Positions 1 through 38,549 of a stretch of 59,866 nt of DNA are shown here, one piece after another. Every line of letters begins with the position of its first letter. The stretch's first letter is position 1. Made by a program: the position numbers and the translations under genes. A model generated the notes under the pieces. It saw only the letters and a program-made list of their open reading frames with translations. It was not told where the DNA came from and searched no databases. Source of the stretch: Escherichia coli (GTDB lineage: Bacteria; Pseudomonadota; Gammaproteobacteria; Enterobacterales; Enterobacteriaceae). The stretch lies in the NCBI RefSeq assembly GCF_003334385.1, contig NZ_QOWN01000029.1. The stretch is one strand, 5' to 3'.

Positions 1-97
1 TTATCGTGAGAGTAATTCATCGGCACGTTAAATCATATCAGGCGTAATACCACAACCCTTAAGTTAGCGCTTATGGGGTTTTTCCCCACCGTTCAGG

Positions 98-431
98 GTG
101 TTCCCCGCGCCAGCGGGGATAAACCGGTCATCACGATGAATCAAAATTTCGCCCGGCTGTGTTCCCCGCGCCAGCGGGGATAAACCGCTTCTCCACCGTT
201 TGGCGAATCGGTGTGAGGGGTGTTCCCCGCGCCAGCGGGGATAAACCGAATCTATTGTGAATTTGAAATGGTCCAGCACTGTGTTCCCCGCGCCAGCGGG
301 GATAAACCGGGTAAAAACACGGTCTGAACCGACATTCATGTGTGTTCCCCGCGTCAGCGGGGATAAACCGGGCGCACTGGATGCGATGATGGATATCACT
401 TGGAGTTCCCCCGCCCCTGCGGTAGAACTCC
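98..431 (+). CRISPR. Type I-E CRISPR array, 6 repeats and 5 spacers (iap-proximal trailer end)
   Basis: 29-nt repeat GTGTTCCCCGCGCCAGCGGGGATAAACCG at 98-126, 159-187, 220-248, 281-309, 342-370 (one C>T), with 32-nt unique spacers; degenerate terminal repeat GAGTTCCCCCGCCCCTGCGGTAGAACTCC at 403-431. Orientation matches crRNA sense on + strand. No cas genes in window. Confidence 0.95.
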
Positions 432-452
432 CAGCTCCCATTTTCAAACCCA

Positions 453-1490
453 TCAAGACGCCTTCGCCAGCTCCTTCACCAACGGTAGCATTATCCGCAT
501 AACGTCACGGCAGCGACGTTCTATTCTTCCAGGAAGTGCCTTATCAATATGCTGTTGATTATCCAGTCTTACGTCATGCCAGCTATTTCCCGCAGGGAAT
601 GCGGCTGTTTTTGCGCGTTGCTGATAACCATCCTTATTCCCAAGATTCCAGTTAGTCGCTTCCACCGAAAGTACAGCAATGCCCGCTTTGTCGAATATTT
701 CTGCGTCATTACAACACCCAGTGCCTTTCGGATAATTTTTATTCAAACCCGGATTGGTCGTTGCGGCTATTCCGTGACTGCGCGCAATTGCCAGCGCCCT
801 GTCGCGCGTTAATTTCCTTACTGCTTCAGGGGTTTTTACACCGCTGTTGAAATACAATTTATCGCCAACAATTAAGTTATCGAGATTAATCACCAGCAGC
901 GTATTTTTCTTTTCGGTGTCACTCATCCGCTTGAGTAAATTCTCAGCGCCTAATTTCCCTTCCTCTTCGCCGCTGGTCGCCACAAATCGAATACCATACT
1001 CGGTAGGCGTATTTTTCAGGCGTTCTGCCAATTCCAGCATGACACCTAAACCTGCGGCGTTATCATCCATTCCTTGTAACGTCAGCCCGCCGAGATTGGC
1101 ATCGGCGTCAGCATCGCTCAGCGGGGCGTAAGTATCCAGATGCGCCATAATGATGATCTGCTGCGGCGCTTTGCCTTCATGAGCGGCAATCACCGTACTT
1201 CCTGTCACGTTATGCCAGTTCTTGCGATTATCGCGGGCGGTATAAATATACCGACTATTAAATGTCCGAATATCACTGCGATAACCCATTTGCTGAAACT
1301 GTTGGCGAATATAATCGGCAGATAACATTTCTGCTGGAGTTCCGGTCATGCGTCCCGGAAAGAAAGTAGCAATATGTCGTGCCTGGGTATTAGCAAAATC
1401 GCCAGGTTTAGGTGACGAGGCGTGTACGGGGAGAATAAAGCATACGCCGAGCGCTAGGGCAGCGGTACGGTGGCGCAATGCGGAAAACAT
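453..1490 (-). CDS. iap: Alkaline phosphatase isozyme conversion aminopeptidase
   Basis: 345-aa ORF with signal-peptide-like N-terminus and M28-peptidase-like sequence; classic position convergent with the CRISPR array. Confidence 0.9.
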   Translation of the reverse strand: MFSALRHRTAALALGVCFILPVHASSPKPGDFANTQARHIATFFPGRMTGTPAEMLSADYIRQQFQQMGYRSDIRTFNSRYIYTARDNRKNWHNVTGSTVIAAHEGKAPQQIIIMAHLDTYAPLSDADADANLGGLTLQGMDDNAAGLGVMLELAERLKNTPTEYGIRFVATSGEEEGKLGAENLLKRMSDTEKKNTLLVINLDNLIVGDKLYFNSGVKTPEAVRKLTRDRALAIARSHGIAATTNPGLNKNYPKGTGCCNDAEIFDKAGIAVLSVEATNWNLGNKDGYQQRAKTAAFPAGNSWHDVRLDNQQHIDKALPGRIERRCRDVMRIMLPLVKELAKAS

Positions 1491-1741
1491 AGTGAGTCCT
1501 TAAATACCATGCAAATTTTTTTACCGCCATAGTATGAAACTGCCGCTGCGCTAAAACAATTTCAAATCTTCCTAAACGCCCGAAATCCGGTGCCTTAAGC
1601 ACTTTTTGATATTAGCTTTGCCAAATCGTTATTCCGTTAAGGAACTACTCATTCTAATTGGTAATTTCATTCGTTCTCTTACGCTCCCTATAGTCGAAAC
1701 ATCTGATGGCAAGAAAATAGCGGTATTGCAAAGGAACGGTT

Positions 1742-2650
1742 ATGGATCAAATACGACTTACTCACCTGCGGCAACTGGAGGCGGAAAGCATCCACATTAT
1801 TCGCGAGGTGGCGGCAGAATTCTCAAATCCGGTGATGCTCTACTCTATCGGTAAAGATTCCAGCGTCATGCTGCATCTGGCGCGCAAGGCGTTTTATCCA
1901 GGTACGCTGCCTTTCCCGTTGCTGCATGTCGATACCGGCTGGAAATTCCGCGAGATGTATGAGTTCCGCGATCGTACGGCGAAAGCCTACGGCTGCGAGC
2001 TGCTGGTGCATAAAAACCCGGAAGGCGTGGCGATGGGGATTAATCCATTCGTGCACGGCAGCGCGAAACATACCGATATTATGAAAACTGAAGGCCTGAA
2101 ACAGGCGCTGAACAAATACGGTTTTGATGCCGCCTTCGGTGGTGCGCGCCGTGACGAAGAGAAATCCCGCGCTAAAGAGCGAATCTACTCTTTCCGTGAC
2201 CGCTTCCATCGCTGGGATCCGAAAAATCAGCGCCCAGAGCTGTGGCACAACTACAACGGGCAAATTAACAAAGGCGAAAGCATCCGCGTCTTCCCGCTCT
2301 CTAACTGGACCGAGCAGGATATCTGGCAATACATCTGGCTGGAAAATATCGACATTGTGCCGCTGTATCTCGCTGCGGAACGTCCGGTTCTGGAACGCGA
2401 CGGTATGTTGATGATGATTGATGACAACCGTATCGACCTGCAACCGGGCGAAGTGATTAAAAAACGGATGGTGCGTTTCCGTACGCTGGGCTGCTGGCCG
2501 CTGACCGGTGCGGTGGAGTCAAATGCACAAACACTACCGGAGATCATCGAAGAGATGCTGGTTTCTACCACCAGTGAACGTCAGGGCCGCGTGATTGACC
2601 GCGACCAGGCGGGGTCTATGGAGCTGAAAAAACGTCAGGGGTATTTTTAA
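1742..2650 (+). CDS. cysD: Sulfate adenylyltransferase subunit 2
   Basis: 302-aa ORF, PAPS-reductase-like fold motif SIGKDSSV; immediately upstream of cysN. Confidence 0.95.
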
Positions 2651-11606: not shown

Positions 11607-12971
11607 TCAAATTACCGCCCATACGCACCAGGTAATTAAGAATCCGGTAAAACCGAGAATGGTCGTTAACACTGTCCAGGTTTTCAGACCGTCTGCTACC
11701 GATAACCCCAGATATTTGGTCACAATCCAGAACCCTGAGTCATTAATATGTGACGCACCAAGCCCACCAAAGCAGGCTGCCAGCGTCACCAATACGCACT
11801 GAATCGGATTCAATCCCATCACCGCTTCTGAGAGTAACCCGCCGGTTGTCAGTATTGCTACGGTTGCTGACCACTGCGATGCACGCAGCGCCAGTGAAAT
11901 AATAAATGCGGCTGGTAACAGAGGCAGGTCAATCATTTGTAGCATGTTGGCAAGGGCTTTGCCGACGCCCGATTCCACCAGCACTTTGCCAAATACCCCT
12001 CCAGCACCAGTAACCAAAATCACTACCGCCGCAGTAGGAAGCGCTGAGCCCATAATGTCGCTGGTGTGTTGTAAGCTCCAGCCGCGACGTAAAGCCAATA
12101 ACCAGAATGCCAGCACCAGCGCAATCATTAGAGCTACCATTGGTGAGCCGATCAGCTGTAGCGTACCAAGCAGGGGATGCGAAGGCGGCATCAGTGTTGC
12201 GGAAACCGTACCCGCCATGATAATCGCGATAGGAATAACAATTAGCGAGGTGACCAGCGCGACGCCCGGTGGATTTATTTTATCGCTTAATTTTGTCGCG
12301 CCTTCCTCACTGGCCGGAGCCAGTTGCATCTGTTCCAGTACTTCTACTGACATCGCATATTGGCGCTTATTGATTATTTTCGCTGCAAAGTAGCCAACAA
12401 CCCCTACGGGAATAGAAATCGCAATACCGATGATGGTTAGCCAGCCGATGTCTGCGTGGAGTAACCCCGCTGCGGCGACAGGGCCTGGATGCGGCGGTAC
12501 CGCCACGTGAACAGTGAGCATGATCCCAGCGACAGGCAGGCCAAATTTGAGTGGCGATATTTTGGCAACCTTGGCAAAACCGTAAATGATTGGCGCAAGA
12601 ATAATAAAGCCGACATCAAAGAAGACGGGAATACCGAGGAAGAACGCTGCCAGAGTCAGCGCAGCGATAGTTCGTTTGTCACCTAACTTGCGACTGAAAT
12701 AATTAGCCAGTGACTCTGCACCACCAGAGTGTTCGATCATACGCCCCAGCATAGCGCCCAGACCAATAATAATAGTGACGGAACCAAGCACACCGCCCAT
12801 CCCGGCGATCATCACTTTACCCACTTCGCCCGCCGGTATACCCGCCGCAAGTGCGACTAACAGGCTGACGAGGAGCAGAGCAACGAATGGTTGTACCTTT
12901 GCCTTGATGACCAGCAGCAACAGCATGATTACGCCAGTTAACGCAATGCATAACAATGTAATTGTGGACAT
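11607..12971 (-). CDS. ygbN: GntP-family permease (putative tetronate / acid-sugar transporter)
   Basis: 454-aa polytopic membrane ORF resembling gluconate:H+ symporter family. Confidence 0.85.
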   Translation of the reverse strand: MSTITLLCIALTGVIMLLLLVIKAKVQPFVALLLVSLLVALAAGIPAGEVGKVMIAGMGGVLGSVTIIIGLGAMLGRMIEHSGGAESLANYFSRKLGDKRTIAALTLAAFFLGIPVFFDVGFIILAPIIYGFAKVAKISPLKFGLPVAGIMLTVHVAVPPHPGPVAAAGLLHADIGWLTIIGIAISIPVGVVGYFAAKIINKRQYAMSVEVLEQMQLAPASEEGATKLSDKINPPGVALVTSLIVIPIAIIMAGTVSATLMPPSHPLLGTLQLIGSPMVALMIALVLAFWLLALRRGWSLQHTSDIMGSALPTAAVVILVTGAGGVFGKVLVESGVGKALANMLQMIDLPLLPAAFIISLALRASQWSATVAILTTGGLLSEAVMGLNPIQCVLVTLAACFGGLGASHINDSGFWIVTKYLGLSVADGLKTWTVLTTILGFTGFLITWCVWAVI

Positions 12972-13059
12972 GGGAAACCCTGTCTGAAAGTTATAGTTAA
13001 CCTACCCCATCCGTAGATGGGGGGATGTATGGGTACGTTGTAATTAGGGATTTAACGAA

Positions 13060-13836
13060 TTAGCGCCAGGCGTCAAACCAGCCAAGCCCTTCTTCGGTGA
13101 GGCCACGAGGTTTATATTCACAACCGATCCAGCCCTGATATCCCACCTCATCGAACAGGCGGAACAGCCACGGATAGTTGATTTCTCCATCGTCCGGTTC
13201 ATGTCGATCAGGTAGTCCGGCAATTTGTACGTGCGCATATTTCCCGGCGTAGTCGCGGATTAAATGCGTCAGGTTGCCATCTACTTTTTGCGCATGAAAA
13301 GTATCTAGTTGAATAAACACGTTATCTCGCGCAACTTCTTCAACAATAGCCAGTGCCTGATACTGGCTGGAGAAGAGATAATGAGGCTTAACGCCGGGGC
13401 TGAGTGCTTCAACTAATATTCGCTTGCCGTGTGGCGCAAAGCGGTCGGCAGCGTAGCGGAGATTATCGATAAATACTGCCCGGTACCGTTCAGCATCTTC
13501 GCCAGCGGGCACGACGCCTGCCATCACATGGACTTGTTCACAATTGAGCGCCAATGCATATTCCAGTGCCAGGTCGATGTCTGCGTGTGCTTCGTGCTCA
13601 CGTCCGGGAAGGGCGGATAATCCCCATTCCCCCGCATTAATATCTCCGGGAGCGGTATTGAACAGCGCCAGTGTCAGATGGTTTTGCTCCAGTTGCTTTT
13701 GGATTTGCAGGGTGGAGTAGTCATAGGGAAACAGAAATTCCACAGCATCGAACCCGGCTTTTCGCGCTGCGGCGAAGCGTTCAATAAAAGGCACTTCGGT
13801 GAACATCATGGATAAATTAGCTGCAAAACGAGGCAT
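13060..13836 (-). CDS. ygbM: 2-oxo-tetronate isomerase (hydroxypyruvate isomerase family, TIM barrel)
   Basis: 258-aa ORF starting [21 protein letters not shown], Hyi-like. Confidence 0.85.
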
Positions 13837-13840
13837 TGCA

Positions 13841-14479
13841 TTAACTCCTTAATTCCGCAATTTCACCTGCGGTCAGATAACGGATCGGGCGGTCACCGAG
13901 AATAAAAATCAGCTTTGCCGTTTCCTCCAGCTCTTCCATATTGTTGGCGGCTTCTTGCAGGCTTTCACCGCAAACCACTGGGCCATGATTTGCCAGTAAA
14001 AAAGCCTGATTGTCTGCTGCCAGTTCCGCCAGATCCTGTGCGATGCGTTTATCGCCCGGTCGGTAATAAGGCACCAGCGGGACATTTCCCATCCGCATCA
14101 CCACGTATGGTGTGAACGGACGAATAACGTTGCTGCTGTCCAGCCCTTGCAGGCAGGAAAGCGCCGTCGACCATGTGCTGTGCAAATGCACCACCGCTTT
14201 ACAACGCGGATTGTTGCGATACAGCGCCAGATGAAAGAGCACCTCTTTCGAGGGTTTGTCACCACTTAACCATTCGCCATCCGCGGCGACTTTGGAAAGC
14301 CGCTGCGGATCGAGATTGCCCAGGCATGAACCTGTCGGTGTCGCCAGTAAATTCCCGTCAGGTAAAAGCAGCGACAGATTGCCAGCCGAACCGGTTGCAT
14401 AGCCGCGCTGAAAGAATGAACTGGCAATCCGCGTCATCTCCTCTCGCAAAGACTGCTCTACTTTTGCGAAATCGCTCAT
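13841..14479 (-). CDS. ygbL: 3-oxo-tetronate 4-phosphate decarboxylase (class II aldolase/adducin family)
   Basis: 212-aa ORF, class II aldolase fold; 4-nt overlap with ygbK. Confidence 0.85.

Positions 14480-35658: not shown

Positions 35659-38549
<2,891 letters not shown>

Follow-up and report, generated by a model that had tools for sequence, protein, structure and literature searches.

A probable leader-distal remnant of the Escherichia coli type I-E CRISPR array beside iap, ending in a degenerate, hairpin-forming repeat

A short type I-E CRISPR array lies beside iap near the start of the 59,866-nt stretch of Escherichia coli DNA analysed here (the window; contig NZ_QOWN01000029.1). We read window positions 76–431 as what remains of the leader-distal (trailer) part of the type I-E array known as CRISPR-I or CRISPR2.1 in E. 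coli, and give this reading, together with the whole history proposed for it below, a probability of about 0.88. The E. coli CRISPR-I array beside iap is the locus at which CRISPR repeats were first sighted, in 1987. The repeat sequences, their register and folds, the synteny, the population frequency and the IS junction were all established in the present analysis. Both the conserved anchor spacer with its degenerate repeat and the IS186-mediated loss of the leader and cas genes are already known from the literature, and nothing essential is new. The importance of the result is limited, going little beyond the correct annotation of an array remnant beside iap.

Composition of the array and fold of its terminal repeat

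The features that the text refers to are, in window coordinates:
1–75, minus strand: right end of an IS186/IS421 (IS4-family) element, with the transposase start codon at 20–18 and the terminal inverted repeat at 53–75
76–97, plus strand: 22-nt spacer stump cut by the IS, GGGTTTTTCCCCACCGTTCAGG
98–309, plus strand: four consensus type I-E repeats (98–126, 159–187, 220–248 and 281–309) with three 32-nt spacers
342–370, plus strand: fifth (next-to-last) repeat GTGTTCCCCGCGTCAGCGGGGATAAACCG, a 28/29 match to the consensus with C13T in the loop (GCCA to GTCA)
371–402, plus strand: last ('anchor') spacer GGCGCACTGGATGCGATGATGGATATCACTTG, identical in K-12 and common across E. coli
403–431, plus strand: terminal degenerate repeat GAGTTCCCCCGCCCCTGCGGTAGAACTCC, with the Cas6e stem cut to CCGC/GCGG and an outer stem GAGTTC/GAACTC
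453–1490, minus strand: iap, alkaline phosphatase isozyme conversion aminopeptidase, a 345-aa ORF annotated as iap in H1 and K-12

Five 29-nt direct repeats start at positions 98, 159, 220, 281 and 342 of the plus strand, at a constant start-to-start spacing of 61 nt and with spacers of 32 nt. Repeats 1–4 are identical (GTGTTCCCCGCGCCAGCGGGGATAAACCG), and these four exact copies and the one 28/29 copy conform to the type I-E pattern G(A/T)GTTCCCCGCGCCAGCGGGGATAAACCG with unique 32-nt spacers. RNAfold pairs repeat positions 5–11 with 16–22 and leaves 12–15 unpaired, which gives repeats 1–4 a 7-bp stem and a GCCA loop at −15.2 kcal/mol. This Cas6e-type stem-loop (7-bp stem, 4-nt loop) is formed by all of repeats 1–5, the C13T copy included, and not by the terminal copy. 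The array lies between cysH and iap and is convergent with iap, the upstream position of cysH being taken from NZ_CM146015.1, a genome with a 100% match over window 1–1500; 21 nt separate the terminal repeat from the stop codon of iap, and cysD starts at window position 1742. An Rfam search of window 1–1800, with E-values up to 10, returned chance-level matches only and no family on the I-E repeat or on the terminal hairpin.

The sixth copy, at 403–431, stands in exact register, 61 nt after the fifth repeat. It matches the consensus at 16/29 positions without gaps and in 21 columns when two gaps are introduced. Only 111 of the ~119,700 29-mers in the window (both strands) have at least 16 matches, and the chance of such a match at a fixed register is ~1e-3. 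The segment is a real, strongly diverged repeat copy, and the original prediction was right to call it heavily degenerate. The accompanying statement, that it has lost stem complementarity, is correct in part: the 7-bp Cas6e stem is indeed reduced, but a 4-bp core is kept and a new outer stem makes the structure stable. Folded one by one, repeats 1–5 share one fold and the terminal repeat forms a different hairpin, of the type ((((((..((((....))))..)))))., with an outer stem of 6 bp and a 4-bp core (−14.1 kcal/mol, RNAfold; z = −6.15 against shuffled sequences, with 0/200 shuffles as good). The outer stem becomes 7 bp when the G402–C431 pair is counted, and the larger segment 395–445 folds at −18.6 kcal/mol. 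The minus strand of the hairpin reaches −15.8 kcal/mol, again with 0/200 shuffles as good.

These differences bear on processing by Cas6e. The canonical stem has the junction GGGG/AUAAACCG, and 403–431 reads GCGG/UAGAACUCC at this place; at the RNA level, GCGG/UAGAAC stands in place of GGGG/AUAAAC. Because the terminal repeat has neither the 7-bp stem nor the G21/A22 junction used by Cas6e, a normal crRNA is probably not made from the last spacer. Two properties of the hairpin count against our explanation of the terminal repeat as a decayed fossil, which is set out below. The outer 6-bp stem needs about three changes from the consensus 3′ end and is not predicted by pure drift, and the terminal repeat folds far better than its shuffles, which is a point against an explanation as debris only.

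Polarity of the locus and loss of the leader beside IS186/IS421

The polarity of the array can be read from intact relatives. In K-12, viewed in the orientation of the window, the order is cas2, an AT-rich leader ending in ACTTTTAGA, 13 good repeats, the last spacer, the degenerate repeat and the 3′ end of iap; in O157:H7, cas2e and the leader are followed by four good repeats and then by the trailer as in K-12. Wherever we looked, no leader was found on the iap side. With the leader side taken from K-12 and O157, the repeat at 403–431 is thus a trailer repeat that is in register, diverged and opposite the leader. Work on K-12 has established that transcription starts from a promoter in the leader and runs toward iap, and that the leader end is where new spacers come in; acquisition studies in the same strain established that Cas1–Cas2 adds each new spacer at the leader, beside cas2, and copies the first repeat in doing so. 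Given this leader-side transcription and spacer entry in K-12, the degenerate end is the old one, and crRNA sense corresponds to the window's plus strand. Repeats near the leader are therefore young and uniform, and the units on the iap side are never renewed.

The prediction that the diverged end is the leader-distal one is therefore borne out, since leader and cas2 lie opposite iap in both K-12 and O157. The companion claim, that the array is read on the plus strand toward iap, describes its ancestral polarity correctly, but the window's own array is without a leader and bears no sign of being read. A degenerate last repeat indicates ancestral orientation and says nothing about present activity; for annotation, the consequence is a leaderless, cas-less remnant and not an active array read toward iap.

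Among the closest likenesses is the trailer of CRISPR2.1 in K-12 MG1655, which shares with the window the 29-nt repeat, the 61-nt period, the place beside the 3′ end of iap and an identical last spacer. Its terminal repeat, GAGTTCCCCCGCCTCTGCGGTAGAACTCC, is one loop base apart from that of the window (CCCT vs. CTCT), and its next-to-last repeat has T13, as in the window, plus G12A. The two arrays differ in what precedes the trailer: K-12 has 13 good repeats after a leader and cas2 to cas3, whereas the window has five good repeats after a spacer stump and IS186/IS421.

What happened at the leader side is best seen in NZ_CM146015.1 (locus L001), which matches window 1–1500 at 100% and has the order cysH, hok/gef, IS (1338 bp), array and iap; window 1–97 falls within the region 12738–14097 of this locus. 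In RefSeq annotation of this genome the CDS of the IS421-family transposase ends at window position 20. The 23-bp terminal inverted repeat at 53–75 (CAACCCTTAAGTTAGCGCTTATG) has a perfect inverted copy, CATAAGCGCTAACTTAAGGGTTG, 1338 bp away in the same locus. When the last G of the IS is added, the spacer stump becomes GGGGTTTTTCCCC, which is the type of G-run/C-run site preferred by IS186, for which an affinity for GC-rich sequence has been stated (PMC3903273). The two flanks of the IS differ (GGGTAAAACC on the far side vs. GGGTTTTTCC), and there is no target-site duplication. As the flanks do not form a duplication, the element, with its 23-bp inverted repeats but no direct duplication, borders a deletion and is not a simple insertion. 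In this genome there is no leader between cysH and the array, repeat 1 being preceded by IS sequence and the spacer stump, and the cas3-cse1-cse2-cas7-cas5-cas6e-cas1-cas2 operon is absent from the cysH–iap interval. The same IS–array junction is present in 280/5426 complete E. coli genomes, among them BL21, C41, C43 and E. coli B. Among the fetched loci, a search for an intact version of the truncated spacer at 76–97 returned only the window and its twin genome.

A deletion bounded by IS186/IS421 accounts for this arrangement; it took away the leader with its promoter, the genes from cas3 to cas2 and the array's younger units. On this reading the array in the window's genome is dead for a second reason, the loss of leader, promoter and cas genes beside the IS, and we infer that the remnant is not transcribed. 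Almendros et al. 2014 (mBio, PMC3903273) reported the removal of leader and cas-E1 from CRISPR-I through IS186 recombination. In their 'arrangement G', the cas-less locus of the E. coli B/BL21 type, cysH is followed by hok, IS186, a partial array and iap, leader L1 along with the cas-E1 genes having been lost by recombination between IS186 copies (PMC3903273). The window shows no essential difference from arrangement G; its closest genomes are those of other strains (YZ_2_2 and ML35). Some relatives carry one extra repeat–spacer unit.

Loci that have no array at all, in strains and Escherichia species (L010 and L013–L015), consist of hok/gef, a hairpin GCGGGGGTAAAACCCCGC, ~120 nt of unrelated sequence and iap. 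In the window's genome IS186 lies inside this same hairpin, GCGGGGGTAAAACCCCGC.

Conservation of the trailer unit and variation of the repeats

The anchor spacer, terminal repeat and iap end (window 371–470) are found at ≥80% coverage in 4238/5426 complete E. coli genomes (78%). Comparison of nine diverse strains shows that the anchor spacer varies at 2/32 positions, and that three sites vary in the 21 nt before the iap stop. Variation among these adjoining segments is greatest in the terminal repeat, which has ~5 variable sites and a C-run indel in 29 nt. The variants of the terminal repeat in E. coli are G3A, T27A, a change in C-run length (28–30 nt) and two loop changes; since these changes are not compensatory, the variation fits drift. 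Set against other E. coli arrays, as the original prediction had proposed, the terminal repeat is near-identical in K-12 and O157 and is fixed species-wide. A degenerated repeat together with a particular spacer, conserved at the iap end, has been described before (Almendros et al. 2014, PMC3903273). The last unit, consisting of this particular spacer and the degenerate repeat, was probably fixed before E. coli diversified and has been inherited since as a fossil. As no spacer lies downstream of the terminal repeat, its 3′ half would make no 5′ handle and would be free to drift. The copy is probably also too diverged to recombine with other repeats and so escapes repeat–repeat deletion, as in the 'anchor' idea put forward by Almendros et al. 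2014 (PMC3903273).

Two relatives of E. coli show other states of the trailer. Escherichia sp. MOD1-EC7003 (L017) has the anchor spacer and T13 but lacks the terminal repeat, ATCACT being followed directly by GGGGGAGCTTCC and the iap-proximal sequence; it follows that the anchor unit is older than E. coli proper and that loss of the terminal repeat is possible. The terminal repeat of E. albertii (L058), GTGTTCCCCGCGCCCAACGGGGAATATCTGG, has decayed differently from the E. coli copy and forms an extended 10-bp stem that includes the 5′ GUGUU (−14.6 kcal/mol). As outgroups for the ancestry of the outer stem, E. albertii with its different decay, MOD1-EC7003 with no copy and the other genera with unrelated trailers do not polarise the stem.

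Decay toward the trailer is also seen in a wider set of 16 iap-side arrays from several genera, although the counts are not independent because eight of the arrays, all from E. coli, share one anchor. In this set, variant repeats occupy the last detectable position in 15/16 cases, positions 2–7 from the trailer in 27/89 and positions 10 or more from the trailer in 10/136. Degenerate terminal repeats in general, which serve to orient arrays, are likewise leader-distal and most changed in their 3′ part (Touchon and Rocha 2010, PMC2886076); the copy in the window differs in that its decay reaches the stem, that a new outer stem has formed and that it is fixed species-wide. Heavy decay is not a general rule, however. 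The CRISPR-II array (ygcE–queE) of the same genome ends in GAGTTCCCCGCGCCAGCGGGGATAAACCA, a repeat in which the last base alone is changed. The expectation that the oldest end is the most diverged thus holds for the array in the window but does not extend to heavy decay elsewhere, and the nearly intact last repeat of CRISPR-II means that age alone does not force such decay, which again counts against our explanation. This CRISPR-II array (L012, 3247–3641) equals that of K-12 (L011) in all six spacers and has kept its leader.

The next-to-last repeat had been predicted to carry a single C>T change that falls in the loop and preserves the stem. Both points are correct: C13T, which turns GCGCCAGC into GCGTCAGC, is the sole difference from repeats 1–4, and RNAfold gives the copy, with its GUCA loop, a structure and energy (−15.2 kcal/mol) equal to those of the consensus repeat. 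Taking the change as decay is less apt; it is a real loop change, but not one specific to the window's array, since T13 is inherited with the anchor and recurs elsewhere. T13 occupies the repeat preceding the anchor spacer in 7/9 diverse E. coli. The same T13 repeat with the same last spacer is present in both K-12 and O157, which also share the additional G12A, and BE2-5 has the stem-breaking G19A in addition. A T13 repeat adjoins the same anchor spacer in Escherichia sp. MOD1-EC7003, of a cryptic clade, and the next-to-last repeat of E. albertii has T13 as well. The variant recurs in Salmonella diarizonae, Citrobacter amalonaticus, Raoultella terrigena and an Enterobacter sp. (L092). In the 16 iap-side arrays about half of the changes in non-terminal repeats fall in the four loop positions 12–15, the loop variants being C13T, C14T, C13G, A15T and G12A (loci L016, L017, L029, L030, L042, L058, L062 and L092, K-12 and seven E. 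coli loci). The 4-nt loop may be only weakly constrained, so that C-to-T changes would build up and recur across many lineages, with the T13 of the next-to-last repeat probably inherited together with the anchor unit in E. coli. A weakly constrained loop that collects transitions is the simplest reading of T13, and the change is presumably neutral.

Alternative readings of the terminal hairpin, the anchor spacer and T13

The stability of the terminal hairpin raises the question as to whether it is a structured RNA under selection, either a 3′-end or stability hairpin of the convergent iap mRNA or a barrier that separates the transcription of iap from that of the array. The hairpin begins 21 nt after the iap stop codon and is strong on both strands, with no shuffle of either strand folding as well. 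Its minus-strand (iap-sense) fold, over window 402–431, is kept in all seven E. coli variants at −19.1 to −10.7 kcal/mol. The reason is that G3A and G402A give G.U pairs there, whereas the plus-strand fold of the G3A forms collapses (−6.6 and −5.3 kcal/mol). E. albertii, whose terminal repeat took another course of decay, likewise has an extended stem of 10 bp. However, only three substitution events underlie the strand bias, and two transitions that favour one strand correspond to p ~0.25; T27A breaks the stem on both strands; and the terminal repeat varies more than the segments next to it. The copy is absent from MOD1-EC7003, and array-less strains have other sequence after iap. No 3′ end of iap appears in the K-12 Term-seq tables that Adams et al. 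2021 (PMC7815308) supply as supplements, which have no entry for iap or for coordinates 28776xx. A GC-containing hairpin between two convergent transcription units does resemble a rho-independent terminator, but it differs from one in that neither strand has a U-tract after the stem (plus-strand tail CAGCUCCCAUUUUC, minus-strand tail CAAGUGAUAUCC) and in not being called by a consensus scan, which found no intrinsic terminator at 395–445 on either strand; for these reasons we rejected an intrinsic terminator. A functional hairpin is thus very improbable, and we regard it as a low-probability lead and not as a finding. If true, such a role would explain why the terminal repeat and its spacer persist in 78% of genomes, even after cas loss.

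The conservation of the anchor spacer could also be explained by a regulatory cr-like RNA, made up of the last spacer and the degenerate repeat (of the mini-array or CreA type), that guides Cascade by partial pairing to repress a gene. With 2/32 variable sites and its presence in 78% of genomes regardless of cas variant, the spacer is unusually conserved, and repeat-like regulatory units with degenerate repeats are known in I-E loci (PMC10120712). The described I-E mini-arrays, however, lie near cas3/cas8 and not at the end of an array (PMC10120712), and the anchor unit persists in genomes without cas-E genes. A search of the window, the K-12 cas locus and the flanking 30 kb gave no match to the anchor spacer with an intact seed and AAG, a strong interference PAM. 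The few seed matches were at chance level, including one at window position 37658 (minus strand) with an ATG PAM; in the K-12 cas locus nothing matched except the anchor spacer itself. As the self-target search for seed and PAM gave only chance-level seed matches, we set this idea aside; it is the most improbable of the alternatives, a good deal more so than a functional hairpin. For T13, a competing history is that the older repeat had T13 and that C13 arose later in a leader-proximal repeat and spread by copying. New repeats are copies of the first repeat, as is well established, and an old repeat can for this reason retain an older version; T13 is indeed the majority state next to the anchor spacer (7/9) and has the same relative position in the cryptic Escherichia clade and in E. 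albertii. Against this, T13 appears at scattered internal positions in unrelated arrays (Citrobacter, Raoultella and L092) and is accompanied by C14T, C13G, A15T and G12A, a pattern that resembles repeated hits on an unconstrained loop. Since the C13 consensus is common to all genera, a C13 ancestor is more parsimonious than a T13 one, and we consider the relic history unlikely, though clearly less so than either of the two preceding ideas.

A stem variant occurs in the array of E. coli HS4 (L004, 3–400), where C9T, which converts a C-G pair to U.G, is found in four repeats of one array, namely the next-to-last and three internal ones. The pattern suggests propagation by copying or recombination within the array.
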